The notes: a model not told the origin generated them from the sequence alone. A DNA stretch of 64,000 nt from a virus (IMGVR_UViG_3300033463_000010:1-64000); one strand, 5' to 3'. Shown: positions 16 to 62,320, counted from the first letter of the stretch. Made by a program: numbers and translations.

Positions 16-549
16 TTGTTCTTGCAGTGGCGTGGCGAAGACGGTGACATTTTCAAGGAAGACTGCGAAAACAGCCTTGCGGAAATGTTCCCGAACTCCG
101 ATTTGAAAGTGCAGTATTCCTTGACCTATTCCCAGGGTGACGGCTTCAACACCTACGGCACCTTGAGCATCAAGGACCTGCTCAACGCAGATTTCAGCAA
201 ATACCCGCTCAACGATTCGGGCATTACCGCACCTGCAAACAAGGACGCTATCCTTGCTGCTTGCGACAAGGCTGACGTTTACGACATTGACCTTGAAGAA
301 AACCGTCGCTACGGCTATTCTTTGGCTGACCGCCTGGAAGTCGTCCCGAACAACGACGAAGACCTCACCGACGAAGACACCGCCCTGTTGAGCGACCTTG
401 AAACCTTTGCCCGTGAAGTAATGGAAGCAATCAATAGCAAGTTTGAAAAGAACGGCTATGACTACTTCTACGAAATGAGCGAAGAAGAAGTCCGTGATAT
501 GGCAGACGCAAACGACTACGAATTTACCGAAGACGGTGAATTAGCCTAA
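16..549 (+). CDS. Acidic phage protein, probably the 3' part of a gene starting before the window
   Basis: Frame open from the window edge; very acidic; C-terminus YDYFYEMSEEEV..ANDYEFTEDG resembles a recurrent phage/plasmid domain. Confidence 0.6.
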   Translation: MFLQWRGEDGDIFKEDCENSLAEMFPNSDLKVQYSLTYSQGDGFNTYGTLSIKDLLNADFSKYPLNDSGITAPANKDAILAACDKADVYDIDLEENRRYGYSLADRLEVVPNNDEDLTDEDTALLSDLETFAREVMEAINSKFEKNGYDYFYEMSEEEVRDMADANDYEFTEDGELA

Positions 550-1594: not shown

Positions 1595-3616
1595 ATGGCT
1601 AAAATTACTGAACGATTTGACCCGTCGCAATATGACTATTTCAAGGCAAGCTACACGCTTGACGGCACCAACCGTGTAAAGAACACCAACGGTATCGTTG
1701 ACGCACAGGGAACGCTTGAAATGGCACAGCGACACGGTGCAACCAACCTTAATTTGGTAGGTGTCAAGGACGGCACCGAAACCGATATTCCGTTGAGCGA
1801 CGTAGGTATTTCCGAAAGCAAGGACGAAGCTATGTCCTTGAAAGGTTTCCTTGAAACCCTGGAAGAAAAACTTGTAAAGCAGTTTGACCTTGACGAAGAA
1901 GAAGTGAAGAATTACCTGGACACTCACACCCAGGAAATGCAGGAACTTTTGGACGACAAGGAATTGTCCCTCAAGGAAAAGGTGCTGTTCGTGCGTAGCG
2001 AAATCACGGGCGAAAAGGACGAAGCTAGGGGACCCGCAGAATATACAGTCCATTCTTACAATGATACCGACGTGGTTCATTATGAAGACGGAACACCCGA
2101 AGAATGGAAGTGTAAACGCTGTGGTGGATTAGAGGGCGGTGAAGACGGTGAACCTTACGGGTATTATATTACAAATTCCAAAGGCAAAACCGTAATGTCA
2201 CCGTTATGCTCCGATTGCGTGGATGATGCCTGTGCTATACTTAATGCAACCCACGGAAATATCAGTAAGGCTCTTGGAGTTTCCGAATCCAAAGGACCCA
2301 CAGAAGAAAAGTTGGGCTACGAAAAGGGACATAAAAACAGCAAAGGCGAAAATGCCCCCTGGGTAATTCGCAGCCACGAAGACAACCGCATTCTTGCGTC
2401 GTTCGCAAAGAAAACAGACGCAGAAGAACATTTGCAGCGTATGAAACAATATAGCAAACAGGAAAGTATGTCCGCTGACGAACTTGACAAGTATATCAAG
2501 GACGTAAAGTCCTTGCTCAAATCCAAGTATGGTATGGACTTCAACGACAAGGACACCTGCCGTCTTAACGTCGGTTGGTTGGAAAAGTTGGACGCTATGT
2601 TCTACCAGGGCAAGCCCGTTGAAGACGGTGCAAAGGAAGTCGCAGCGTTCTGTGGCTACAACAAGAACGAATCCAAGCAGTCCGAAGCGAACGGACCTTT
2701 TGACGCACCTATCAAGGATTGGTATATGGGTGCATACAAGGAAGACGACCTGGGCGACAGGCTCAACGGAACGTTCAAGGGTGCCCTTCAAACCTTGATG
2801 CGTGGCGACGACATTTACGACTACATTGGTGTAGGCGACTCCCTTATTCGTGAACGCCTGTTTAGCAAACTTGCAGCAATGATTGACGTTGACTACGACG
2901 AAATCTACAACGTGTGGCTTAACGAGGGTGCTGCGAGCAACGAACTGACTGCCAAACTTAACAAGATTGGCATAAAGCGAACCAGGACTATCCCGCCCAC
3001 TATCAAGGACAAGGTGAAAAGACTAGGTAGGGGCGTATTACCCCCGAAAATCGTAAAGGTTAAGGGCGAATCCAAGAAATCCGAACGCCTGTTCAATAAA
3101 GCCGAAATGGAAAAAATCGCATTGTCCGAAGCGTCTAGCCTTGACAACTACCGCAGCGACGTTATTTCCGAACTTGTGGTGTCGTTCCATTATGGCGAAG
3201 ACGGGGCAACCAAACTAGCCGACAAACACAGCGACACCATAAATGACGCTTACGTTGAGGGCGAATTGCTCCCGTATGAAACGGCAAGGCTAATCGCCCG
3301 TCAAGACGGAAACGGCTACGCCAACGAAAGCAAGCAATCCAAATCCAAGAAATCCGAAAGCAAGAAATCCGAAGTCCACCTGGAATTGATTGACACAATC
3401 ATTGTTCCGAAGTGGCTGTGGGAAGCCTACAATTTCGGTAATGAATACGGTGAAGACCTGGACGAACACGAACAGAACATTCTTTCGGAGTTCCAGGAAA
3501 AGTATTCCGATTGCCACCTGGACGACGAAAGCGAAGAAGCCTATTTCAGCAGCAACAATGACTTTGATAGTTATGGTGGGCTGTGCTTCACCGTCAAGGT
3601 GTATAAGGAAAAGTAA
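1595..3616 (+). CDS. Modular polyprotein-like protein with ESK(K/Q)SE linkers; candidate internal head protein
   Basis: 673 aa; GGAGG RBS; small domains (including CKRC..CSDC Zn finger) separated by SESK, NESKQSE, GESKKSE and ESKQSKSKKSESKKSE. Confidence 0.75.
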   Translation: MAKITERFDPSQYDYFKASYTLDGTNRVKNTNGIVDAQGTLEMAQRHGATNLNLVGVKDGTETDIPLSDVGISESKDEAMSLKGFLETLEEKLVKQFDLDEEEVKNYLDTHTQEMQELLDDKELSLKEKVLFVRSEITGEKDEARGPAEYTVHSYNDTDVVHYEDGTPEEWKCKRCGGLEGGEDGEPYGYYITNSKGKTVMSPLCSDCVDDACAILNATHGNISKALGVSESKGPTEEKLGYEKGHKNSKGENAPWVIRSHEDNRILASFAKKTDAEEHLQRMKQYSKQESMSADELDKYIKDVKSLLKSKYGMDFNDKDTCRLNVGWLEKLDAMFYQGKPVEDGAKEVAAFCGYNKNESKQSEANGPFDAPIKDWYMGAYKEDDLGDRLNGTFKGALQTLMRGDDIYDYIGVGDSLIRERLFSKLAAMIDVDYDEIYNVWLNEGAASNELTAKLNKIGIKRTRTIPPTIKDKVKRLGRGVLPPKIVKVKGESKKSERLFNKAEMEKIALSEASSLDNYRSDVISELVVSFHYGEDGATKLADKHSDTINDAYVEGELLPYETARLIARQDGNGYANESKQSKSKKSESKKSEVHLELIDTIIVPKWLWEAYNFGNEYGEDLDEHEQNILSEFQEKYSDCHLDDESEEAYFSSNNDFDSYGGLCFTVKVYKEK

Positions 3617-4151: not shown

Positions 4152-4188
4152 AATACCTATTGACAATCAATAGGTATTTTGTTATATT
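4152..4188 (+). promoter_or_regulatory. Promoter overlapped by a palindromic operator
   Basis: TTGACA(4160)-17-TATATT(4183); perfect 12-bp IR AATACCTATTGA/TCAATAGGTATT. Confidence 0.8.
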
Positions 4189-4211
4189 GTAGGTGTAAAC
4201 AACCACGAGGT

Positions 4212-23101: not shown

Positions 23102-23392
23102 ATGCTTAAAATAATCCCCCACGAAGCTAAATCCAAAGAAACGGAGCAGCCCCTTAACAATACAGAAGAAACTTGTGGTAAGCCTAACGAGGATGCTTCC
23201 GCAGCGAGTGTGTTTGACACCCGTAAGAAGGACACATTGTCACGTATTGAAACCTTGCATAAGTTGGTTTCTAGTTTTGAACCGCCTACGGAGGACATAA
23301 CTCACGATACTATTAGCGATATGGATTATATCCTAGAATCCCTTGACGATGTTATTAAGGACATAAAAGACGCTACAGGTCTTGAAGAATAG
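23102..23392 (+). CDS. Small acidic protein with shared N-terminal leader
   Basis: MLKIIPHEAKS; AAGGAG RBS. Confidence 0.65.
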   Translation: MLKIIPHEAKSKETEQPLNNTEETCGKPNEDASAASVFDTRKKDTLSRIETLHKLVSSFEPPTEDITHDTISDMDYILESLDDVIKDIKDATGLEE

Positions 23393-23402
23393 GTTTTAAA
23401 GT

Positions 23403-23783
23403 ATGCTTCGTATAAAGATTCACGAACGTCTTAATGAAGAATTAGGACCTGTTGCGGTTGGCGACCAAATATGGGCATCCGAGGATAGTGCTAGTTCCGT
23501 TACGTGGGAAGAAGCCAAGGCTCTTGCAGAAAAAATAGACGGGTGGCGGTTGCCGACTAAAGAAGAATTACTGCATTTGGTAAATTCAAGTGAGATGTCG
23601 TCTATAACAGACAACCACGACGGGTGGTTAAACGGAAGAAGGTATGCTTCTTATTGGAGTTCCACACCCTATGAAGGTATGAATAAGACTATGGCGTATG
23701 GTATGACTATAAGTCATTTTAATAAGCGTGTTCACGCTTTTCTTGCTACGGATAATCTACGGGTTCGCTTGATAAAAGAATAA
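23403..23783 (+). CDS. DUF1566/Lcl-like C-type lectin-fold protein with shared leader
   Basis: TWEEAK..GWRLPTKEEL..YWSST..VRLIK; N-terminus MLRIKIHE. Confidence 0.75.
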   Translation: MLRIKIHERLNEELGPVAVGDQIWASEDSASSVTWEEAKALAEKIDGWRLPTKEELLHLVNSSEMSSITDNHDGWLNGRRYASYWSSTPYEGMNKTMAYGMTISHFNKRVHAFLATDNLRVRLIKE

Positions 23784-34052: not shown

Positions 34053-34826
34053 ATGCGTATAACGAAAGTAAATCAAAGAATTTCACGACTTGACGAACAG
34101 TTGAGCAAACTGCTCTATTTGAAAGAACACCCGAAGCGTCGTCTTCACGAATCCTTGTCCGATTGGGCAGACCGTGAAGTGCAAATTGCCTGTAAGGGTG
34201 CGGACGGCTATGGTGCAGGCTGCTATCAGTCGGCATTGAAAGCGTTCCGTTCTCTTATGGACGACGGGCATAGTGGATTTTCTATCGGCTGCACGAAAGC
34301 AATCTTGAACAGATTGATTGACGGCAAGCCCCTTACGCCTATCAATGACGTGGACGACGAATGGAATAGTGAATCCGATTTTTATGGGGAAGATGGGCAT
34401 TATCAGCACAAACGTGCGTCGTCTGTATTTAAGACGGTGAACCCCGACGGCTCCGTGGAATATAGCGACGTTGACAGAACCGTGTTGGTTGAAGTTGCCG
34501 ACGACGGCACAGAAACAACGTGGCATAGCGGGTTAGCGTCCAAACTTGTAAATGAAATTGTAGGACCGATAACGTTCCCGTATTACCCTAGTGCTAAACC
34601 CTACAAGGTTTATGCCCACCAATTTGATTCTGTGAATGCAGAAGTAGGTTGTTTTGATACGTCGCATATCTTGAAAATCGTGGACCCCGACGGAAACGAA
34701 ATTGATTGTGAACGTTTCTATGTTGAAAGTGGGGACAGGGGCTTCCAGGAAGTAGGACGTGAAGAATACGCTGCACGTGTTTTGTCATACAGAAATGCCC
34801 TCAAATCCCGTGTAGCAAATAAATAA
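34053..34826 (+). CDS. Conserved phage protein with basic N-terminal leader
   Basis: GHSGFS..RLIDGKPLTPI..DEW..YQHKR.S.VFK; leader ends RRLHES. Confidence 0.65.
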   Translation: MRITKVNQRISRLDEQLSKLLYLKEHPKRRLHESLSDWADREVQIACKGADGYGAGCYQSALKAFRSLMDDGHSGFSIGCTKAILNRLIDGKPLTPINDVDDEWNSESDFYGEDGHYQHKRASSVFKTVNPDGSVEYSDVDRTVLVEVADDGTETTWHSGLASKLVNEIVGPITFPYYPSAKPYKVYAHQFDSVNAEVGCFDTSHILKIVDPDGNEIDCERFYVESGDRGFQEVGREEYAARVLSYRNALKSRVANK

Positions 34827-46850: not shown

Positions 46851-48089
46851 ATGGTAATCACAAAAGGCATAGAGTTACGGTTAGACCCTACGAAGGCACA
46901 GAAGATATACTTCAATAAGTGTATCGGTTCCGAACGTGTAGCCTATAACGCTATGCTGAATACGAAGATTACATTGTATCGTAATTATGGTGTTAAGAAT
47001 TTTAGCCCTAATTGGAGTTCATTAAAGGACTTCTATCCGTGGATGAAGGACGTAGATAGTCGTTGCCTTAATTATGCTAAAATAGAAGTGGAAACGGCTT
47101 TTAAGAATTGGTTTAGGTCTTTGAAAAACGGAGGAAATGTAGGTTTTCCAAAATTCAAGAAAAAGGCACACGCAGGAAAGTATCATAACACTTCAATGCC
47201 TAGCACACCCGACAGATTGTTCAAGGGTAACAGGATATTCATACCTGTAATCAAGTGGGTTAAGTTTAGGGGCTATAAGAATTTAGACCTTAAACATATC
47301 AAGAAAATCCGCAACTTAACTATTAAGCGGACGAACACAAATAAGTATTTTGTGTCTGTATGCTGCGATGTAGAAGTTCAAGAATACGAACATACAGGTA
47401 GTTGCGTAGGACTTGACTTGGGTGTTAAGGATTTAATCATCACTTCAAGTGGTGAAAAGTTTGAAAACAAGCACTTATTGAAGAACTCCGAAAAGCGTAT
47501 AAAGCATTTACAAAGAATTTTATCTAAAAAGAAGAAAGGCAGCAAGAACCGTGAGAAAGCACGGCTTAAACTTGCTACCGCCTATGAGAAACTAGGCAAC
47601 AAGAGAAAAGATTACCTTCATAAACTGACAACGAAAATTGTTCGTGAGAACGACATAATCTGCATAGAGGACTTGAATGTTCGTGGTATGCTCAAAAACC
47701 ATAAACTAGCAAAGTCTATATCCGATTGTTCGTTCTCAATGATACGGTTTATGCTGTCATACAAGTGCGGTTGGTATGGACGAAAACTTGTCGTGATAGA
47801 CAGGTGGAGTCCGACTAGCAAGTGCTGTTCCTGTTGCGGACACGTTATCCCCGTTATTGGCTTGGGTGTGCGGGAGTGGGTCTGCCCTAAATGTGGTGTT
47901 TGCCACGATAGGGACGTAAACGCAGCAAAGAACATACTTGATGAAGGTTTAAGACTTTTAGATGTAGGGTGCGTTCCACCCGAATTTAAGCCTGGGGAGA
48001 ACCCGCCTATGGATGACCGTCTAGCGATAGACCTAAAAAGTAGTGGTTCTGCGAAGCAGGAATCCTGCACGGCATTAAAGTGCGGGTAG
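46851..48089 (+). CDS. tnpB: TnpB RNA-guided endonuclease; right end hairpin plus TTCAC at 48094
   Basis: GLDLG, CIEDL, CSCCG..CPKCG, RDVNAAKNI. Confidence 0.93.
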   Translation: MVITKGIELRLDPTKAQKIYFNKCIGSERVAYNAMLNTKITLYRNYGVKNFSPNWSSLKDFYPWMKDVDSRCLNYAKIEVETAFKNWFRSLKNGGNVGFPKFKKKAHAGKYHNTSMPSTPDRLFKGNRIFIPVIKWVKFRGYKNLDLKHIKKIRNLTIKRTNTNKYFVSVCCDVEVQEYEHTGSCVGLDLGVKDLIITSSGEKFENKHLLKNSEKRIKHLQRILSKKKKGSKNREKARLKLATAYEKLGNKRKDYLHKLTTKIVRENDIICIEDLNVRGMLKNHKLAKSISDCSFSMIRFMLSYKCGWYGRKLVVIDRWSPTSKCCSCCGHVIPVIGLGVREWVCPKCGVCHDRDVNAAKNILDEGLRLLDVGCVPPEFKPGENPPMDDRLAIDLKSSGSAKQESCTALKCG

Positions 48090-51749: not shown

Positions 51750-52805
51750 TCAGTCCCAAACTCTAACCCCATTAACAAGTTTCCAATGCCTGCCTAGTTT
51801 TAAGCCCCGCATTTTCGCTTTAGATTCTTCGGACATTTTACGACCTTTTAGGGCTTCACTAATTTTTCGTCTATGTTCTTCGGAAAATTTTAGGGTTCCG
51901 TTTCTTTTTTTTGTTTCAAGCATTTTATTTGTTACACTAGGGTCCCGTTTACGTCCTGTTAGTGCTTTTGATAATTTGTCACGTTGTTGTTTTGATATTA
52001 CACGACCTTTAGCACTCTCACTTAATTTCTTTTTATGTTCGTCGGAAAATTTTCTGCCTTTTAATACTTGCGACAGATGCAATTTTTGTTCTGCGGTTAA
52101 TGGTTTACGGGGTCCACTATGTTTTCCTTTTTGGGACTCACTCATTTTCTTTCGGGTTTCTTCTGTTACAGTTGTCCCTAGTTTATTAAGTCTGTTGCTT
52201 ATTCTTATGCGTTCCCGACCTTCATCTGTTAAGTAATCGGGATGCCCTTTACGGATAGCTGACAGGTTTGTTTTTTGTTCTGCTGACCATTTATGTCCCT
52301 TGTGGGCTTCACCATTCTTACGCCTAGATTCTTCGCTAACAGAATGACCTTTTAGTGTGTTTGATATACGTTGGCGTTGTTCTAGGCTTACAGGCTTTCC
52401 TTTGCGGATTTTGGAGGAATACTCGTTTGCTAGTATGACTGCGTTTTGATATTCTAGGGCTAGGTCATCTATGGTTTCTTGTGTTATTTCTTTTATGTCT
52501 TGTTTTGTGGTATCTATCATATACTTAAAAGCAAGAGCCATTTTGTATTTGTATGGACTTTTTGCAAGTATGTAGTAGTAATAATGGATAATTAGGTGTT
52601 GTGCAAACGGAAGGCTTATTATGTTATCGGGTTCGTTATCCACAGGCTCATTTAGCATACGGCTAAATGATTTTGGGAATTTGTGATGATAGGCACGGTT
52701 GCGAACACGCTTTTTAGGGTATTTATCATATTGGGCAAAGATTTCTAAAACTTTTTGCCATTCGGGTTTATCCGTGTAGAATACTTGTGTGTAATCGTGA
52801 GTCAT
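51750..52805 (-). CDS. HNH-type homing endonuclease with many NUMOD3 repeats
   Basis: YHHKFPKS..DN...L...H...H; repeated SEE.RRK.SE..KG. Confidence 0.85.
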   Translation of the reverse strand: MTHDYTQVFYTDKPEWQKVLEIFAQYDKYPKKRVRNRAYHHKFPKSFSRMLNEPVDNEPDNIISLPFAQHLIIHYYYYILAKSPYKYKMALAFKYMIDTTKQDIKEITQETIDDLALEYQNAVILANEYSSKIRKGKPVSLEQRQRISNTLKGHSVSEESRRKNGEAHKGHKWSAEQKTNLSAIRKGHPDYLTDEGRERIRISNRLNKLGTTVTEETRKKMSESQKGKHSGPRKPLTAEQKLHLSQVLKGRKFSDEHKKKLSESAKGRVISKQQRDKLSKALTGRKRDPSVTNKMLETKKRNGTLKFSEEHRRKISEALKGRKMSEESKAKMRGLKLGRHWKLVNGVRVWD

Positions 52806-52906
52806 AGGTATTTCTAAATATAATAAAATTGCAGTGTTAGCGACATACTGACTTACTAATTATTAAAGTATTTCATAAAATTTTTCAAAAATTTTAACAA
52901 AACCTG

Positions 52907-52935
52907 TTGACAATAGGCAGGTAATTTGTTATATT
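52907..52935 (+). promoter_or_regulatory. Phage promoter
   Basis: TTGACA-17-TATATT with GGTAATTTGT. Confidence 0.8.
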
Positions 52936-52979
52936 TATATCGTAAAGAGAAAACAATCACTTCAACCGAGGACAGCCCT

Positions 52980-53971: not shown

Positions 53972-54358
53972 ATGCAGATGAACATTAAGGTTCACGAAGC
54001 GTCCAACAAATACAAGTTTTCCTATGGGGAAGAAATAGGAATTAAGACTTTTACTTCTAATTCCGCTATGCCCCTAGTGTCTTATGACAAGCAGATGGCG
54101 AAGTTCCGTAATGGTATTGACAATGTTCGTGTTTATCCTAACGGAACGGGTGATGGGATTTCGGTGCAGATTTTTTGTAGTTCCGATGAAGCCAGGTTTG
54201 CTACGCCCGATATTACGTCTATGAATATCAAGTATGTGGGCGATAGTAATAACTATGCTCAAATGATTCAAACGGCACTTTGCTATGTCGCTGACATTCT
54301 TGACTATCGTAAGTCTATCGTAGAAACGCTCAAGGCTTCGGGTGTTATTAACGGTTAG
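53972..54358 (+). CDS. Hypothetical protein with shared leader
   Basis: MQMNIKVHEAS; AGGAGG RBS. Confidence 0.65.
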   Translation: MQMNIKVHEASNKYKFSYGEEIGIKTFTSNSAMPLVSYDKQMAKFRNGIDNVRVYPNGTGDGISVQIFCSSDEARFATPDITSMNIKYVGDSNNYAQMIQTALCYVADILDYRKSIVETLKASGVING

Positions 54359-54373
54359 TAGAGGTTCGTCCTT

Positions 54374-55150
54374 ATGATGCAGTCCATAGCCATACAAGCC
54401 TATTTCGCTCAAATGCGGAATTTCTTTACCAGGCAGGGCTTTGACGGTTCTATGAAAGTCTGCTATGGTTCGGACGCAGAGGGTCCGCAGCGTATTTTGG
54501 ACCAGGACCTAGCCGACAAGAAAATGGAACGCAAGTCCGAAACCAACCGTGAGAATGTCCGTGAAGCCCCGTATTCCTACCTGTTTTGGACCAGGGATTC
54601 CTTGAAGAACATTGTCCGTCGTTCCATACGCCTGCAAGACGGAGTGGCACCCGACGGGCGGTTGAAGTTCAAGAAGACCGTTTCGGCAGAATTTGGTATG
54701 GGTTGCGTCCTGGTGTCTAACAAAATGGAATTGATTGAGGATTTCGCAGAAGCGTTCGCAGCGGAATACCAAAACGTTCATAACGTCCCGATTAACTTGA
54801 AGTTCGCCTATGAAACCCGCACAAGCACAGCAGAGGGCGGTTATGATACGGCAGGCTTGAACGCAACGATTATCCAGGACCTTGGGACCGAGGAACCTAT
54901 TTCGTTCCGACAGGGTGACTTGTTTTCGTATAGTTGGAACGTCCGTTTCCTGTTGCAGTTCGTGAGCGAATTTGCCGATTGGAAGACAGCCCCGTTGCGT
55001 TCCGTTGTCGTTGACCTGTATAACAAGCGTGGCATTCCTCTCGCTTCTATGGATTTCAACGGACAGCCCGAATGGAAAGAATATGTCGCAAAGGACGGCA
55101 CAAAGGTAATCGTTCCCAAGGACGCTTACGTTGAAGTTGAGAAACCCTAG
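54374..55150 (+). CDS. Putative tail completion/neck protein
   Basis: Size, beta-rich content and context. Confidence 0.4.
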   Translation: MMQSIAIQAYFAQMRNFFTRQGFDGSMKVCYGSDAEGPQRILDQDLADKKMERKSETNRENVREAPYSYLFWTRDSLKNIVRRSIRLQDGVAPDGRLKFKKTVSAEFGMGCVLVSNKMELIEDFAEAFAAEYQNVHNVPINLKFAYETRTSTAEGGYDTAGLNATIIQDLGTEEPISFRQGDLFSYSWNVRFLLQFVSEFADWKTAPLRSVVVDLYNKRGIPLASMDFNGQPEWKEYVAKDGTKVIVPKDAYVEVEKP

Positions 55151-55275
55151 TAGGTAATTTGTTATATACTATGGTTGTGCCCGAAGTAATGCTCATTTTG
55201 CGTGTTCCCCTGTTGCACGACGGGGGAATTTGTTGTTATTTTTAAGAACGTAAAAACTAAACCAGGAGTTTATTT

Positions 55276-55899
55276 ATGCAGTATGTCGTTGACGAATCCT
55301 TAACCAACTTCAAGTTTTGGAGTGGTGCTGCTGACAACGCCAAACTTTTAGAATACAGCGAATTGCAGGAATTGGATGATGTTCTTCCCGAATACTTTAA
55401 TACGGGCGACGGGAACCTCCCGACTGCAACTGAAATCAACGATATGTTTTGGTTTGATTTCGCCACTGTCTGCGAAGCCATCGGCTTGCAGTATGACGAA
55501 GAAAAGGGCGAAATTATCCGTGACAACGACGAAAGCCGTAAGAAGCGTTCCGAAGCCAACGGCAACGACAAGGTGGGTAAGCAGAACTTCACCTATGCAG
55601 AACTTGAAGATGCCTGGAACAAACTCAACGCCCGCATTCAGCGTGACCCGTTTGACAAGGACAATCCCCCGTCGGGTGGTTATGACATTCGCAACGGATA
55701 TGCCTGTGGCGAACGTGATTGGAACGATTGGCACATTGACTTTTCCCTTGACGCTGTTAAGAAAGCCCTTGAAGAAGTGGCTGAACCGATTAAGGAAGGC
55801 GACCTTGAAGTTTACTACAATGACAAGGACAATAATCAAGCCGATTCCGACAATCACGGTATCTTTATCATTGACGGCAAGATTGACACCATTTACTAA
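55276..55899 (+). CDS. Two-domain acidic protein with ESRKKRSE linker
   Basis: FKFWSGA..TEINDMFWFD domain, linker, second domain. Confidence 0.7.
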   Translation: MQYVVDESLTNFKFWSGAADNAKLLEYSELQELDDVLPEYFNTGDGNLPTATEINDMFWFDFATVCEAIGLQYDEEKGEIIRDNDESRKKRSEANGNDKVGKQNFTYAELEDAWNKLNARIQRDPFDKDNPPSGGYDIRNGYACGERDWNDWHIDFSLDAVKKALEEVAEPIKEGDLEVYYNDKDNNQADSDNHGIFIIDGKIDTIY

Positions 55900-55919
55900 T
55901 TGCAAAGGGGTTCTTGGAT

Positions 55920-56933
55920 ATGGCTAATTGGTCTATCAGTTATACAGACGTTTTTGGTAAGAAGAAAGTTGAATCGTTCACTAGCCAGGGTGCTGCCCAG
56001 GCTCGCTATGAAGAACTCATTCCCCGCACTTACGGGGATTTGGGCGACCTTGTGAACGTGACCGCACCTATCCGTTCCGCTGTGAAAGTTTCGGAAGGTA
56101 TCTTTTACGGGTCTGCCGACAAGAAAGACCCGAACCGCTATGCCGACGGCAAGGAAGAATGGGACGATTTCAAGGACGTGGTTCGTAAGTTGCTTGCTGA
56201 ATTTGACGACCGTGCTGAAACAAAGTTCTTCAAGGTTGTCCCGATTGGTAATGACAACTACGAAATCTATTTCAAGGGCGACGGGGACAAGTTGTCCGAC
56301 CTGCTCTTTATGAGCATTTATCAAAGTGCGATGGGCGAGCCGACTTTTAACGTTATCAAGGGCGACGTTAGCGACGCTGTGTTTGACGACGCTTATGACA
56401 TTGTTGAGCCGTATATCGCAGACGTGTTCCGTATGGCTTATGACGACGGCAACACGGGTATTGTCCGCAAGTTCTATTCTAGCGATGACTTCCACAAGTC
56501 GTTGAAAGAAGATTGTGGGGGTGCGTCTGCTGCGTCGCTTGGAGCAGTCCCGACCGCCACCGTCCGTCCGTCTAACAAGCGTGAGTCTGTGACTTATGAT
56601 AAAGCGAAGACTATGGACGACTGCTATGCAGCGGTAAATTCTACCATTATGGATGACCCTGCTGTTACGTCGTTAGGTCTTTATGTTATTAAGGACGAAC
56701 ACGCTAGTCCGTCGTGTAGTGCGGTATGTATCTATGACTCCGCAGACAAGAACCCCAATAAAGACCCGATTCTTGGGTTTGAGTTCTATGACAACGGGAT
56801 ATACCACGTTGTTTGGTATGAAGACAATGAAGACATTTCCGAAGGTCCTATTAGCAAGTATGGTTCCGCTGCTAAACTTGTGGATTTCTATAAGAATGAT
56901 ATTGTGGAATACTTGCAGCGTTCTAAAAGTTAA
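55920..56933 (+). CDS. Modular acidic protein
   Basis: Segments separated by KVSE, LKE and KRES. Confidence 0.65.
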   Translation: MANWSISYTDVFGKKKVESFTSQGAAQARYEELIPRTYGDLGDLVNVTAPIRSAVKVSEGIFYGSADKKDPNRYADGKEEWDDFKDVVRKLLAEFDDRAETKFFKVVPIGNDNYEIYFKGDGDKLSDLLFMSIYQSAMGEPTFNVIKGDVSDAVFDDAYDIVEPYIADVFRMAYDDGNTGIVRKFYSSDDFHKSLKEDCGGASAASLGAVPTATVRPSNKRESVTYDKAKTMDDCYAAVNSTIMDDPAVTSLGLYVIKDEHASPSCSAVCIYDSADKNPNKDPILGFEFYDNGIYHVVWYEDNEDISEGPISKYGSAAKLVDFYKNDIVEYLQRSKS

Positions 56934-56960
56934 ACTAAAACCAACCGAGGCAAAAACACT

Positions 56961-58004
56961 ATGCAGATTGCAGAAGACTATATTCCGTTTAAGTGTGAGT
57001 TCATTGACGACATTTCCCGTGTTGACGAATCCGCACAATCCGAAGTTGCTAAAAGTGGTGGCACCATTCTCGCCATTGTCAAGGGTCAGCATTTCTGCCC
57101 TGGCAAGGTAAGCCGTAACCACCGCCTTTATACTCCCGAACTTTGGGAAGAAGCAGGTAAGGACGAAGACGTGCAGCGTAAGTTGACCAACGGACAAATG
57201 TTCGGTCGTATCGGTCACGAAGCCGAAATTACCGACGAAGATATTGCCGACGGCAAGTTTAGCCACATTACCCGCAACATTGATTGGAAGACGGGTATCG
57301 CTGAATCTGTTATCTACAATACGGATATGGGTAAGACGCTTTACACTATCCTTCGTGCGGGCACTACTATGTTTGTCAGTTCCCGTGCCGATGGCGACTA
57401 CGAAGGTAAGGACGAAGACGGCAACGATATTCTTGACCCGAAGACCTACAAACTTGAACGCTTTGACTTTGTGCAGGACCCTGGGTTCCTGGACGCAAAG
57501 CCGAAGATGATTTCCGAAAGCAAGCAGAATGAAAAGATTGAAGAAACCGTCAAGGAACGTGTCGCAGAATCCCTGCTTTCGCTTGCAAAGGAACTTGGGG
57601 CACCCGTTGAACTTGACGGCAGCACCTACGTCGTAGAAAGCCTGGAAAAGAACACTGTTGAAATGACAGATTGTGACAAGGGCACAGGCGACACTTACAA
57701 GTTTGAAGACTTTACCGAAGTGACCGAAGACATTAAGCAGTCTATCGTGAAGTTCGTTGAAGGCTTGCAGGAAGAAGTGAAGCAGTCCGCAGACACTATC
57801 CGTGACTTGAAATTCGCTAACAAGAATGGCTTGAACGAAGCCTACGTGACCGAACGTCGTCGTGCAGGTGCTACTTACGAAGCGATTGAACGTGAGCAGC
57901 CCGAAACGCAGACCTTTAAGGTCCTGGAAGCAAAGGCACCCGCCCGTGAAGCCGAAGACAACGACGGGTCCTTGATTGGTTATATTCTCGGCAGCAAACG
58001 TTAA
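56961..58004 (+). CDS. Prohead protease (T4 gp21-like)
   Basis: SRNHRLY, GRIGH, SH, VSSRADG, FDFVQDPGFLDA. Confidence 0.9.
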   Translation: MQIAEDYIPFKCEFIDDISRVDESAQSEVAKSGGTILAIVKGQHFCPGKVSRNHRLYTPELWEEAGKDEDVQRKLTNGQMFGRIGHEAEITDEDIADGKFSHITRNIDWKTGIAESVIYNTDMGKTLYTILRAGTTMFVSSRADGDYEGKDEDGNDILDPKTYKLERFDFVQDPGFLDAKPKMISESKQNEKIEETVKERVAESLLSLAKELGAPVELDGSTYVVESLEKNTVEMTDCDKGTGDTYKFEDFTEVTEDIKQSIVKFVEGLQEEVKQSADTIRDLKFANKNGLNEAYVTERRRAGATYEAIEREQPETQTFKVLEAKAPAREAEDNDGSLIGYILGSKR

Positions 58005-58016
58005 GGATGGCTCATT

Positions 58017-58337
58017 ATGGCTAAAATGAAAATCAAGGTTCACGAAAGCAGTAAAAACGAAGAAAAAAGTGTCGTAGATTTGCTTGCGGTTATGGACACT
58101 CCAAAGTATAAGCAGGACTTTGAAAAGATTAAGGCTGCTTACGATAACTTTGAAAAACTTGCAGACAGCCTGGGCTATCGTATTGCGGTGGACCCCGATG
58201 AAGAATATCAAGCCGTCCTGCTTCCCAAGAGTATCGTGAATGACGTGTATTTGGACCAACACGCCAACGCTAAATTTTTGGATGGGACAAAGCCGTTGTC
58301 TAGCATAGTCCCTGTCGTATTAACGTATCATAAGTAG
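58017..58337 (+). CDS. Hypothetical protein with shared leader
   Basis: MAKMKIKVHESSKNE. Confidence 0.65.
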   Translation: MAKMKIKVHESSKNEEKSVVDLLAVMDTPKYKQDFEKIKAAYDNFEKLADSLGYRIAVDPDEEYQAVLLPKSIVNDVYLDQHANAKFLDGTKPLSSIVPVVLTYHK

Positions 58338-58347
58338 AGGGCTGTCT

Positions 58348-58614
58348 ATGCCAAAGTTGAAGATTATGGTCCACGAAGCCAAGTCCGACCTTGAAAAGCA
58401 GATTACGAAAGAATGTGTCCGTCTTGGATTGGACCGCCTGGTTAATCGTGGCTATTCTTCACGGATAGTCCCGACTTACGGCAATTACATTGAAAAACAC
58501 AAGGATGAACCTGTTGAACAAATCGCAAAGTATATCTACGACACGGAACAGCGTGAGTGGTTCAAAATGCGTGGCGGTTTCAATATGTTCGGTCTTTTTG
58601 GCAACAGAGGTTAA
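58348..58614 (+). CDS. Hypothetical protein with shared leader
   Basis: MPKLKIMVHEAKS. Confidence 0.65.
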   Translation: MPKLKIMVHEAKSDLEKQITKECVRLGLDRLVNRGYSSRIVPTYGNYIEKHKDEPVEQIAKYIYDTEQREWFKMRGGFNMFGLFGNRG

Positions 58615-58619
58615 GCACT

Positions 58620-59237
58620 ATGGCACTCCGAATTAACATACACGAAAGCAAGAAGACAGAAGCCCAGGGTCTTGTGTTTCTGCCCGATGGCTTGAAATCC
58701 GACATTGAATACGAACTCCCGTCGCTTTACAGGGCTAACGGACTTGCTGTGTTCAAGGGTAAGGAAGAAGTTGAACCCGACGCAGCCTGGGACGTAGAAG
58801 ATATGTCCTGGGACGTTGACGAAGCCACCGTGTGCGACGATTACCTTATGGTCGCTTTCAAGGACAATCCTGGTGCCGAAAAGGTCAAGTCCATTATGGC
58901 TGACGAATACAAAAAGGCTGTTCTGCCCGAAGCCCTGGAACTTGTCGGCTACATTGACGTGGGTGCCCTGCGTGACGCTTACGCCAAGCAGATTGTGGAC
59001 GCTACAAAGGGCAAGGAATTTGAACTAGGCTACTACCTGGGCGATATTAACGATATGGGTGACGTTCCTGGTGGAATTGACAATGCCTATACCGAAGACG
59101 GGGAAGTTAGTTGTATGGTCGGTGCTTTCGGTTTCGTCGTTGCCGAGGCTGCTAACGGCAGCGAAATCAAGGACACGCAGTCCGCAGACGAAGCCTTGAA
59201 GTTGGTTGAAGAAATGTATAACAAATACAAGGCGTAG
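58620..59237 (+). CDS. Acidic protein with shared leader
   Basis: MALRINIHESKKTE. Confidence 0.65.
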   Translation: MALRINIHESKKTEAQGLVFLPDGLKSDIEYELPSLYRANGLAVFKGKEEVEPDAAWDVEDMSWDVDEATVCDDYLMVAFKDNPGAEKVKSIMADEYKKAVLPEALELVGYIDVGALRDAYAKQIVDATKGKEFELGYYLGDINDMGDVPGGIDNAYTEDGEVSCMVGAFGFVVAEAANGSEIKDTQSADEALKLVEEMYNKYKA

Positions 59238-59245
59238 GGCTGTCT

Positions 59246-59635
59246 ATGGGCTTGAAGATTAAAATGCAAGAAGCGTCCAGGAATGACGAAATCCTGGGCT
59301 TGCTTTCGGAAAAGGGTTTTACCGTGGACCAGGAAGCAAGCGATAGGGAGGACCGCCTGGTAGCCTATAAGCAATATAAGGCTCACGGCTACTGCGTCGG
59401 GGATGTTACGTTAGTTGTCAAGTATGACGCATACGTGAACCGCAGCCTGTTTATGAACGTGCTGTCTAATAGTTATGCTAACATTAGACTTAAACGTTCC
59501 GATAGTATCTTTGAAACGTCTATCGTGGATAATCGGGATATGGTTAATCTTGAAGAAGCCCGTCGCTGTATCGGTAATGCCGAACGTGCGGTAAATATGT
59601 ATATTTCAGCATTAGAAACAATTTACGAGGTATAA
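59246..59635 (+). CDS. Hypothetical protein with shared leader
   Basis: MGLKIKMQEAS. Confidence 0.65.
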   Translation: MGLKIKMQEASRNDEILGLLSEKGFTVDQEASDREDRLVAYKQYKAHGYCVGDVTLVVKYDAYVNRSLFMNVLSNSYANIRLKRSDSIFETSIVDNRDMVNLEEARRCIGNAERAVNMYISALETIYEV

Positions 59636-59637
59636 CT

Positions 59638-60675
59638 ATGTTTAACTGCTCTATGCAAAAGAAGAAAGAAAGCCTTGCCAAGCAAAATGAATACAAGCGT
59701 GGCGAACTTGATTTTAGGGGTGGCTTTGACTTTAACGGTAAGCCGAAGAAGTCCGTTATTTCCAAGATTAGCAAAGCCCTTGATAAAGCGGGCATTTCCG
59801 CAGTCGTGGACCCGTCGGGGGAACGCTTGGAAGTTCCCTTTGGCGATGATGCTGTGTATATGACGGCTATGAGCCAAAGTTATGGTTCTAGCAAGTGCAG
59901 TTATGTCAATGTTCGCCAAAAGAGCGACCGTAGCACTGACGTGGGTGTTTATAACGTTGGGGATGCCGTGAGTGTCGTGCAGGAAATTACACAGGGGCTA
60001 GACGCTCCCAATGAATCCAAGAAATCCGAATCCGCAGCAGGTCGTTCGTTCTATGACGAATTTATTGCCGAACGTGCCCGTGATATTCTTGAAGAATACG
60101 ACGTGAACGAAGCCCAGGGCGGTATGTGCGATTATTGGTATAACATTGGCGACGGTGTTGAAGATATGGAGCGTGACGACCGCAGTGGCTTTTTCTCTTA
60201 TAACGATGGTGGTGTTCAAAAGACTTGGATGACTACCCCGTTTATGCTTGCGGGCGGTGGCTACCTTGACCCGAAGACGAAACCCGAATATGACCGCCTC
60301 CGTAAGAACTGCGAAGACGACTATCGTGAAGAATGCGAAAAGAATGGGGTTGAGTGCGATTTCAGTTCCGAAGAATACTATGAATTTGAAGACACCTGGT
60401 CCCAGGAAGGTCTTGAAATTTTCGCTTATGCGGAAATTATGCTTTATAGCCGTAATTCCGACCGTGACGAATATACGCTTATTGCCCGTATCAGCCGTAG
60501 TTTTGACTATACCTACGGACGTAACCCGCAGGACGATTTGAACATTGAAATGGATTTGACTTCGGAACAATTCACGAAGGAAAACGCAGACAAGTTCTTC
60601 GCTGCTGTTGAAGAAGCATTCGCCAACTATTCGTTTGACGATGGCGACAAGGAAATTAACGTTAAGGCAGATTAA
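59638..60675 (+). CDS. Two-domain protein with CSMQKKKESL leader and NESKKSES linker
   Basis: Motifs read from the translation. Confidence 0.7.
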   Translation: MFNCSMQKKKESLAKQNEYKRGELDFRGGFDFNGKPKKSVISKISKALDKAGISAVVDPSGERLEVPFGDDAVYMTAMSQSYGSSKCSYVNVRQKSDRSTDVGVYNVGDAVSVVQEITQGLDAPNESKKSESAAGRSFYDEFIAERARDILEEYDVNEAQGGMCDYWYNIGDGVEDMERDDRSGFFSYNDGGVQKTWMTTPFMLAGGGYLDPKTKPEYDRLRKNCEDDYREECEKNGVECDFSSEEYYEFEDTWSQEGLEIFAYAEIMLYSRNSDRDEYTLIARISRSFDYTYGRNPQDDLNIEMDLTSEQFTKENADKFFAAVEEAFANYSFDDGDKEINVKAD

Positions 60676-60699
60676 GTCTGCAAAGGAAAAGGTAAATCT

Positions 60700-61473
60700 A
60701 TGGCATACAAATGCTCTATGCAGAAGAAAAAGGAAAGCCTTAACACGAAGGCTGAATCCGCTAACTCCAACTATTATTTCAGTATATGGACTGAAAATTA
60801 TCCCAAAAATGGCAAAGAACCCACACGTTATATTAACGTGTATGAGCCTTCGTCTTGTAAGGGTTGGTATGACGTTACAAAGGAATATGACGACGCTTAC
60901 GAAGAAGAAATGGAACTCCGTAATGGTAATGTAAATTACACCTATATCGCCAAGAAAGTTATTGATAAAATTATTTCGGGTGCCATTAAGCCTTGTGATG
61001 ACCCGTATGACACTATCCCTAACTTTTCTAGGTGGTTCAAGGAATATCCGTTTAACATAAGTGAACACACCCAGGATTTCCTGGACGGGAAGTATGGTTC
61101 TCGCAGCGAATCCAAGAAGCACACTTGTTCTATGCAGAAGAAAAAAGAAAGTCTTGCTGCGAAGAAGTCCAAGAAGTGCGAAGGCTTTATGGATGACCTG
61201 CCGTATGACGCACCCGTAGCCATTGAAACCCTGTGTTCCGAAATTATGAGCCACACCGAAGAATTTACCATTGAAGACGCAGCCGTGGCTGAAATGTGCG
61301 GTAAGTGGTATATTCGTGATTACGCAAATGGTTCTACCGCAGCACAGAACGAAGACGAATTTGTTGACGAAATCCTTGCAGGTCTTTCGGGCAGTCCTTT
61401 GGACGGCTCCCCGTTCGGTGCAGCCGAAGCCGAAGAATACGCCAGGAAGATTTACAACGAAGTCGTTGCTTAA
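60700..61473 (+). CDS. Two-domain protein with two CSMQKKKESL motifs
   Basis: N-terminal and internal copies. Confidence 0.7.
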   Translation: MAYKCSMQKKKESLNTKAESANSNYYFSIWTENYPKNGKEPTRYINVYEPSSCKGWYDVTKEYDDAYEEEMELRNGNVNYTYIAKKVIDKIISGAIKPCDDPYDTIPNFSRWFKEYPFNISEHTQDFLDGKYGSRSESKKHTCSMQKKKESLAAKKSKKCEGFMDDLPYDAPVAIETLCSEIMSHTEEFTIEDAAVAEMCGKWYIRDYANGSTAAQNEDEFVDEILAGLSGSPLDGSPFGAAEAEEYARKIYNEVVA

Positions 61474-61822: not shown

Positions 61823-62320
61823 ATGCTTAAATTCCGCAAGAAACTCCGTGAAGAAGACAGCATCGTGGAAGTTGGCGACGTTAAGTTGGATGCCAAGGAA
61901 ACCGAAGTTGTTTTCGCTGACGAAGAAAAGGACATCCAGGTTGTCGTTTCCCCCGACCCCGAAAACGAAAACTCTGTGACCGTCGCAGTTCTTACTAACT
62001 CCAAGGAAGACGTGGAAGAAGAAGAAGTTCTTGGTTCTGCTTCCGTTGAAGGTAGTGAAGATAAAGGTGCTGAAGAATCCCGCAAGGCTGCTCGTCGTGA
62101 GGCATTCCGTAAGCGTCTTGAAGCCCGTCGTTCTGCAAAGAAGCAGACCGCACCCGCCCGCAACGAGGCTCGTGCCGAAGCGTTCCGCAAGCGACTTGAA
62201 GCCCGTCGTGCTGCAAAGAAAGCAGAAGCCAAAACTTCTACTTCCACTGCCGAAGCCCGTAAGAAGGCAATCGGTGAAGCACGTGCGAAGTTCCGTTCCA
62301 AAATTGGCAAGAAAGCCTAA
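61823..62320 (+). CDS. Prohead scaffold/core protein
   Basis: Acidic N-half, duplicated EAFRKRLEARR; directly upstream of the MCP. Confidence 0.6.
   Translation: MLKFRKKLREEDSIVEVGDVKLDAKETEVVFADEEKDIQVVVSPDPENENSVTVAVLTNSKEDVEEEEVLGSASVEGSEDKGAEESRKAARREAFRKRLEARRSAKKQTAPARNEARAEAFRKRLEARRAAKKAEAKTSTSTAEARKKAIGEARAKFRSKIGKKA

Follow-up and report, generated by a model that had tools for sequence, protein, structure and literature searches.

We analyzed a 64,000-nucleotide stretch of viral DNA (IMGVR_UViG_3300033463_000010:1-64000, referred to here as the window), which is the first part of the single 213,231-bp genome of an uncultured phage, and found that one short leader peptide, M-x(0-4)-[LM]-K-I-[KR]-[VLI]-H-E-[SA], heads about 19 open reading frames (ORFs) genome-wide, weaker variants included. 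This leader, which we call the tag, is probably this lineage's counterpart of the capsid targeting sequence (CTS) propeptide of phage T4, a peptide present on IPI, IPII, IPIII, and Alt and removed by the gp21 protease (PMC9026906, PMC3012670, PMC7411985). The final Glu of the tag (P1) and the Val, Leu, or Ile two residues before it (P3), Glu sites in the head proteins, joints within multi-module proteins, and the register of a Tad3 homolog together tie the tag to the adjacent gp21-like protease. A sequence-only reading of the window had proposed that the leader is a portable tag that loads a variable set of cargo into the head, and those parts of the proposal that can be tested by sequence alone, namely the protease, a gp23-like capsid protein, the Glu rule, and portability, were all upheld.

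Distribution and conservation of the tag

All eight ORF starts with the leader that had been listed for the window (23102, 23403, 34053, 53972, 58017, 58348, 58620, and 59246) were confirmed at their positions, and each has a Shine-Dalgarno-like purine run 5 to 12 nucleotides 5′ of it. The list was nevertheless an undercount, not only with respect to the genome-wide total but also because a second class of tag and ES-KK-x-E joints lie within the very region that it had singled out (53972-61473). As for the rest of the genome, two tagged ORFs (64282 and 68862) and a variant (69690) are found just past the capsid gene, a second island occupies 207-212 kb, and lone tagged genes lie at 82978, 101628, and 117039. 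The first ORF of the window (16-549) continues from the last ORF of the genome (L009 7450-8232), with which it shares the text LFLQWRGEDGDIFKEDCENSLAEMF. The record therefore closes on itself (it is either circular or terminally redundant), which places the cargo island at 207-212 kb next to the multi-module protein encoded at 1595-3616.

The motif had been expected to be enriched at N termini, and it is, far above chance. When ORFs of at least 40 residues from a six-frame translation of the 213-kb genome were searched with the pattern [IVLM]x[IVLM][HQ]E[ASRG], in which Met is not required, 20 matched. In at least 12 of these, the match sits no more than a few residues from the start codon, where ~9% would fall by chance (binomial P ~1.6e-8). 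The 15 top-ranked six-frame matches likewise all lie at ORF N termini. A position matrix built from 12 seeds gave 16 matches at or above a threshold of 14 bits, all N-terminal, and none in the reversed sequence; the top score genome-wide, 31.6 bits, was that of ORF 58017. Once the first 14 residues were removed, no pair of tagged proteins of this genome clustered (BLASTP, E < 1e-4). The codons used for L, K, I, V, and S differ synonymously between copies of the tag, which indicates that selection acts on the peptide and not on the DNA, and a DNA-level repeat was ruled out on the same grounds.

Anatomy of the tag

Numbered from the final Glu, the 57 distinct tagged proteins of this phage and its relatives have Met or Leu at P7, mostly Lys at P6, Ile at P5 without exception (57/57), Lys or Arg at P4, Val, Leu, or Ile at P3 (54/57), His at P2 (50/57), and Glu at P1 (54/57), while P1′ is Ser or Ala in 36 and Lys or Arg in 12. 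The span from Met to Glu ranges from 7 to 11 residues, with a mode of 10, and a further Glu is frequent at P5′ (S-K-K-x-E).

As judged from a structural model and from homologous domains that carry other versions of it or none, the tag lies outside the fold of the cargo. In the AlphaFold2 model of the 58620 cargo, which has a predicted local distance difference test (pLDDT) score of 79, residues 1-16 fall below 50, a segment that coincides exactly with the tag and the S-K-K-T-E-A-Q after it. A search with a profile of the 59246 family returned 28 representative proteins, in which the same domain is preceded by MRMKIRLHE/S, MRITVRE/N, MMHIHVNE/S, MRIKMVE/A, or a minimal MKE/S (the slash follows P1) and, in one two-module protein, by an internal joint plus a tag. 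That the motif might instead be part of a folded domain, a possibility raised together with the original proposal, is contradicted by these proteins and by the homologs of Tad3, which have no tag or other versions of it before the same domain start.

A Tad3 homolog in register with the predicted cut

The product of ORF 34053 carries a longer leader, of 33 residues, ahead of a domain of the anti-Thoeris Tad3 family. It matches the Tad3 profile PF25185 with 102.6 bits (gathering cut-off 27; E = 1.5e-29) over residues 34-143, residue 34 being aligned with profile position 2, and it also matches the solved Tad3 chain PDB 9B7D (E = 1.4e-3). Untagged Tad3 homologs are 212-232 residues long and start M-S-M-x-D-W-A-x-R-E-V. 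The homologs of this clade have 30-35 extra residues ending in K-R-R-L-H-E, followed by S-L-S-D-W-A-D-R-E-V, and in some relatives this extension opens with a canonical M-K-I-K-I-H-E. The predicted cut would generate S-L-S-D-W-A..., in register with position 2 of the untagged members, so that cutting after the Glu would restore the native Tad3 N terminus. A review describes contacts between the N-terminal helices of Tad3 and the active site of ThsB, and binding and inhibition of ThsB are known for the founding member of the family only (PMC13728456).

A gp21-like protease and Glu sites in head proteins

The gene that precedes the tagged cassette had been read as that of a gp21-like protease, and its identity was strengthened on several counts. 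In addition to its match to the head maturation protease family phrog_207 (Table 1), a profile of 14 protease relatives matches T4 gp21 (PDB 5JBL, E = 8.8e-4), and His86 and Ser140/141 are invariant. The aligned positions in 5JBL read Ala, which we take to be inactivating substitutions of the catalytic residues. The match of the protease to Pfam S77 (PF03420) is weak (21.9 bits, with a gathering cut-off of 27), and precomputed annotation assigns PF03420 to homologs at 54-73% identity; a search of the genome itself with PF03420 gave 0 matches, as it did in its controls, and is therefore uninformative. Proteases of the gp21 family cut after Glu (PMC5694885, PMC9026906), and the end of the tag, a hydrophobic residue, any residue, and Glu, followed by Ser or Ala, fits this rule.

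Candidate sites ending in Glu are also present in the head proteins themselves. The protease has a candidate self-cut site, PKMISE-SKQNE, at the end of its catalytic domain, where E186 and S187 are invariant and T4 gp21 aligns with PKEITES, and another toward the C terminus, TFKVLE-AK, which in relatives follows the pattern [FY]-[KR]-[IVM]-x-E-[AS]. In the major capsid protein, the candidate maturation site N-Y-K-R-Y-E/S (residues 56-62) lies ~10 residues before the conserved core, and YKRYE[SA] is kept in relatives whose proteases are only ~50% identical. The putative scaffold, for which no family match was found, contains KKLRE-[ED]D, of which KKLRE is conserved in relatives and is sometimes internal. 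A predicted complex between protease residues 1-195 and the first 60 residues of 58620 scored 0.01, which is neither support nor counter-evidence.

The gene order reported for this region was also confirmed, with four tagged ORFs directly 3′ of the protease gene, separated by gaps of 5-12 nucleotides, before the genes for the putative scaffold and the capsid protein. When jointed ORFs are counted as well, six ORFs follow the protease gene tightly (gaps of 2-24 nucleotides), and no strong terminator was found between them. A likely terminator, with an 11-bp-stem hairpin and a T-rich run (55204-55229), lies between ORF 54374-55150 and the protease-gene operon. There are, genome-wide, ~25 copies of a strong promoter-like sequence, TTGACA-N17-TGTTATAT(T), often followed by an AACCAC-rich leader (for example at 4158-4200 and 52905-52945), and copies of its -10 part only also occur, such as the one at 55160 upstream of the protease operon.

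Joints, multi-module proteins, and a second class of tag

Among the called proteins, we counted 14 instances of the pattern E-[SA]-[KR]-[KQ]-x-E, vs. 0.64 in composition-preserving shuffles. These joints are located in multi-module proteins of the head module and of the cargo island, and in the protease. The C-terminal module of the 59638 protein (60019-60672) is 59% identical to a tagged ORF that stands alone in the relative L004 and starts MSKMKIRVHE/SSGSAG. Since what follows the ESKKSE joint in one phage is a tagged ORF in another, joint and leader hold equivalent positions. Likewise, the C-terminal module of the 55276 protein (55567-55896) has a counterpart, at 66% identity, in a tagged ORF that stands alone in the relative L036 and starts MSNMKITLHE/S. 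Modules are, on these alignments, exchanged at joints of the ES-KK-x-E type. At 208212-208790 of the genome, M-T-R-K-L-T-I-K-V-H-E-S follows a 100-residue frame ending in G-E-S-K, in frame and with no stop between them, which is either one two-module protein or two genes.

A second peptide, C-S-M-Q-K-K-[KI]-E-S-[LF]-x-K-x-x-E, heads the products of ORFs 59638, 60700, and 65316. Its sites are at 59647-59676, 60712-60741, and 61126-61155 in the window and at 65334, 93467, and 212866 in the rest of the genome. The peptide is also found in relatives (L001, L003, L004, L010-L013, and L060). Its copies in the phage and the relatives lie at N termini, internally after ESKK, at other sites, and once at a C terminus. 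Its Cys is invariant, and its codons vary synonymously. It may be a second address or a special kind of joint.

Portability among relatives

Relatives in IMG/VR whose proteases are 54-87% identical to that of this phage have the same tag; in the clade as a whole, protease homologs span 35% to 99% identity. In three large relatives, we counted 13, 9, and 5 matches to the tag at the DNA level, all on the forward strand, and 0 to a reversed-pattern control. Of the relatives' 40 distinct tagged ORFs, 27 have no homolog in this genome, and the 59 tagged proteins of the phage and its relatives fall into 46 unrelated cargo families, 39 of which are singletons. The proposal that the tag is portable and its cargo variable is thus borne out, since the cargo differs this widely despite the similarity of the proteases. 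An exact-pattern scan of IMG/VR for M-K-I-K-V-H-E retrieved the known relatives and ~10 strays, which lack the following Ser or Ala and look like chance matches.

More distant relatives show a different arrangement. L016-L018 (~130 kb, from IMG/VR), whose proteases are ~50% identical, have a tag of the form M-x-K-I-x-L-V-...-E-A on genes located 5′ of the protease gene, and the cassette between the protease and scaffold genes is missing from them. The scaffold of these phages starts with a tag-like M-S-I-K-I-L-K-K-F-x-G-K-K-S-E. No match to known phages was found by blastn of the region at the DNA level. The nearest cultured phages by capsid protein (tblastn) are Rhizobium Cuauhnahuacvirus, 100-200-kb myoviruses at ~30% identity, which have no cargo cassette and in which the protease is either fused to the capsid protein gene or next to it.

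Predicted cargo and neighboring genes

The coordinates of the tagged ORFs, the jointed ORFs, and the head genes are collected in Table 1. For most of the cargo, nothing was found in PHROGs or Pfam. This holds for the 53972, 58017, and 58348 cargo, and 58017 has in addition no homolog among the sampled relatives. The mature 58620 protein is very acidic, with a predicted isoelectric point of 4.2, and its homologs come after the protease gene in the relatives L001, L004, and L011. The AlphaFold models of 58620 and 59246 gave no functional lead (Foldseek E > 1e-3; VIA-align Z no higher than 8.1, with generic ferredoxin-like domains as the partners); fold searches with 58620 returned only a generic ferredoxin-like arrangement, and the ESM Atlas held no usable match for it. 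The 23102 protein, which has a degenerate leader, has a homolog in the relative L015 that starts MAMCIKVKE/AKKCE.

The cargo that can be assigned is diverse. A C-type-lectin-like domain had been noticed in one of the tagged proteins, and 23403 does contain one, as judged by its match to Pfam Lcl_C; tagged homologs of this protein are present in the relative G003. A SAM lyase is encoded among the tagged cargo at 82978, and the cargo at 210915 has a weak ParB-like nuclease domain. In the relatives, 3 of the 32 cargo proteins scanned have a Pfam match, two to Fib_succ_major and one to DUF6293_C.

Two further ORFs lie in this part of the genome. One, on the minus strand at 51750-52805 within the head module, encodes 351 residues with G-H/K-x-x-S-E-E-x-R-x-K-x-S repeats and is a candidate homing endonuclease-like protein with NUMOD-type repeats. 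The other (46851-48089, 412 residues) has an N terminus resembling that of TnpB/OrfB proteins of the IS200/IS605 family and is a candidate member.

Table 1. Tagged, jointed, and head-assembly ORFs of the window (a slash in a leader marks the predicted cut)
Feature	Coordinates	Strand	Basis
673-residue multi-module protein, ESK(K/Q)SE joints	1595..3616	+	three ES[KR][KQ]xE sites and related ones
Tagged cargo, 96 aa, degenerate leader MLKIIPHE/A	23102..23392	+	matrix 17.9 bits, N-terminal
Tagged cargo, C-type-lectin-like, MLRIKIHE/R	23403..23783	+	Pfam Lcl_C, E 1.4e-10, residues 23-124
Tad3-family (anti-Thoeris) protein, 33-residue leader ending KRRLHE/S	34053..34826	+	Pfam PF25185
Tagged cargo, 128 aa, MQMNIKVHE/A	53972..54358	+	leader match
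Untagged two-module protein, joint D-ESRKKRSE-A	55276..55899	+	N-terminal part matches phrog_5149
Prohead maturation protease, T4 gp21 / Peptidase S77 type, 347 aa	56961..58004	+	phrog_207 'head maturation protease', E 3.6e-22
Tagged cargo, 106 aa, MAKMKIKVHE/S	58017..58337	+	matrix 31.6 bits
Tagged cargo, 88 aa, MPKLKIMVHE/A	58348..58614	+	leader match
Tagged cargo, 205 aa, MALRINIHE/SKKTE/A	58620..59237	+	same place in relatives
Tagged cargo, 129 aa, MGLKIKMQE/A	59246..59635	+	family conserved in clade
Two-module protein, MFN-CSMQKKKES-L N terminus, ESKKSE joint at residues 126-131	59638..60675	+	second-class tag
Protein with CSMQKKKES twice, N-terminal and internal after ESKKHT	60700..61473	+	second-class tag
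Putative scaffold, 165 aa, rich in Ala/Lys/Arg/Glu	61823..62320	+	position between protease cassette and capsid gene, and composition alone
Major capsid protein, T4 gp23 type, 549 aa	62339..63988	+	Pfam Gp23, E 2.7e-10; tblastn matches annotated major capsid proteins

Discussion

The reading that we favor runs as follows. Each newly made tagged protein would carry at its N terminus a flexible peptide in which hydrophobic and basic residues alternate ([LM]-K-I-[KR]-[VLI]-H), and this peptide would anchor it to the core of the assembling prohead. Once active in the prohead, the gp21-type protease would cut after the final Glu of the tag, and often again five residues further on, at S-K-K-x-E; the same enzyme would cut the ES-KK-x-E joints and the similar sites in the protease, the scaffold, and the capsid protein. 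The small peptides would then exit the head, while the folded cargo would stay with the DNA and enter the next host cell with it. The steps differ in how far we would vouch for them. Cutting of the tag by the protease is very probable, targeting of the cargo to the head is somewhat better than an even bet, and for injection of the cargo into the host we would put the chances at about equal.

What the cargo would do in the host is suggested by its content. It changes fast and includes a Tad3 homolog and a SAM lyase, so that part of it is probably an anti-defense kit, which would be present before phage gene expression. A few tagged families that are conserved beside the protease gene may instead be structural core proteins. 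A bolder version holds that the tag marks a preloaded anti-defense arsenal, with dozens of fast-turnover, head-borne proteins acting in the first seconds, before phage gene expression, among them a SAM lyase and a Tad3 inhibitor whose active N terminus would be made only by the head protease. We regard this version as possible, with the odds somewhat against it. If it were true, the tag would be a handle, readable in sequence, for new injected counter-defense proteins, of which a handful of genomes would contain no fewer than 46 families, nearly all of them with no known domain, and packaged inhibitors of signaling-type defenses such as Thoeris would represent a new tactic.

Several observations weigh against the CTS-like reading. 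The residue after the Glu is Lys or Arg in the 12 tags mentioned above, and in two tags of this genome Asn replaces the Glu at P1, although in both another Glu site lies 3-5 residues on. The multi-module head proteins 55276 and 1595 have no N-terminal tag, which implies that the tag is not the sole way into the head. Host-type promoters, perhaps early ones, precede the operons of several tagged genes, so that coexpression of these genes with head assembly is presumptive. The mature cargo is mostly acidic, whereas T4 IPII and IPIII are basic. The tag is, we presume, unrelated in sequence to the T4 CTS, the link between them being analogy and a shared protease family. Finally, all relatives are uncultured, and we infer cleavage, packaging, and injection from sequence comparisons.

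The strongest competing explanation, which we nonetheless consider unlikely, is that the tag is a protease-removable propeptide on structural proteins of the prohead core or inner body, which would later be degraded or kept as packing and would not be host effectors. Throughout the clade, the 58620 and 59246 families indeed keep to one position next to the protease gene, ORF 69690-71195 encodes a helical, acidic-tailed protein of 501 residues with both a tag variant and a joint, the T4 core proteins gp22, gp67, and gp68 are also cut by gp21 (PMC7411985), and the inner-body proteins of phiKZ are clustered and abundant (PMC13282480). Yet the preponderance of singleton families, 39 of 46 among close relatives, amounts to a turnover typical of arms-race genes and unlike that of structural parts, there is no plausible structural role for Tad3, a SAM lyase, or a lectin-like domain, and the tagged genes are scattered across the genome, beyond the head module.

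Much less probable is that the tag is recognized by machinery unrelated to the capsid. It would then be the substrate of a modifying enzyme, a degron through which a host AAA+ protease shortens the life of the protein, or a signal that directs the protein to another compartment. Signals for ClpX can be short N-terminal basic-hydrophobic motifs, which makes the idea conceivable, but it does not account for a Glu that hardly varies and precedes Ser or Ala, for the ES-KK-x-E joints, for the related motifs in the protease, capsid protein, and scaffold, or for the Tad3 register. Moreover, the 213-kb genome gave 0 matches to the radical-SAM domain (PF04055) in a search that was positive in 14 of 14 control genomes, and a tag for a radical-SAM maturase was rejected for that reason. 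Least credible of all is a mere effect on mRNA or translation initiation, in which a Lys-rich, A-rich start would boost expression with no functional peptide: AAA and AAG are frequent at the very beginning of these ORFs, each of which has a good ribosome-binding site, but residues are kept where synonymous codons vary freely, A-richness leaves the P5 Ile, P2 His, and P1 Glu unexplained, and copies of the tag are also found inside multi-module proteins, behind joints.

Should the tag work as the CTS does in T4, proteins injected with the DNA, a class that is hard to find, would be labeled by their sequence. The labeled set is large, changes fast between close relatives, and includes two recognized counter-defense families (Tad3 and SAM lyase). 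Its members are candidates for screening against bacterial defense. Attempts to load foreign proteins into phage heads could also make use of so compact a tag, 9-10 residues with a defined joint, and the coevolution of an address and its receptor could be followed, as a natural experiment, in the different tags of the clade.

Comparison with known systems

The CTS of T4, reportedly the subject of a study by Mullaney and Black in 1996, is the closest parallel. As in T4, an N-terminal propeptide of ~10 residues is common to unrelated proteins and ends in a hydrophobic residue, any residue, and Glu, with the same geometry; there is a gp21-family protease and a gp23-family capsid protein; the cargo loci vary strongly between relatives; the cargo has anti-defense members, T4 IPI* being an inhibitor of a restriction enzyme; and candidate self-cut sites lie at both ends of the catalytic domain of the protease. 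The T4 CTS is 10 residues long, and its processing depends on residues 8 and 10, while targeting depends on residues nearer the N terminus; with Asp at residue 10, the protein is still loaded but no longer cut, and the CTS has been suggested to be a general loading route for varied proteins in T4-like phages (PMC9026906). The principle is therefore not new (PMC9026906, PMC3012670, PMC7411985), and what sets the present system apart is its larger scale and a joint grammar of its own. About 19 tagged ORFs and 6-8 jointed multi-module proteins compare with four proteins in T4, and the tagged genes are spread genome-wide, with a second class of tag (CSMQKKKES), fixed ES-KK-x-E joints, and mostly acidic cargo. 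In contrast to T4, this system is known from its sequence alone.

The phages phiKZ, 201phi2-1, and SPN3US resemble this phage in having a jumbo genome, a gp21-like protease with specificity for Glu, and many head-internal proteins, some of them clustered (PMC5694885, PMC7411985, PMC13282480). The C-terminal self-processing of their protease, and propeptides that are thought to target the prohead, would be further points in common. Their sites are A/S/G-x-E and their propeptides mostly exceed 100 residues (PMC5694885), whereas here P3 is Val, Leu, or Ile, as in T4, and the tag spans 7-11 residues. Neither a virion RNA polymerase nor nucleus-forming features turned up here, and no search was aimed at them.

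Incorporation of the Dar proteins of phage P1 is ordered by protein-protein dependencies and is not known to use one short common tag. As would be the case here, DarA, DarB, and Hdf are anti-restriction proteins that are packaged into the head of a myovirus and reach the host together with the DNA (PMC12810830, PMC9024508). The protein families of the two systems are unrelated. Encapsulins also use a short portable peptide to bring unrelated cargo into an HK97-fold shell. Their cargo-loading peptide is usually C-terminal and uncleaved and binds the shell directly, with no protease involved, whereas the peptide described here is N-terminal and followed by a predicted protease cut.

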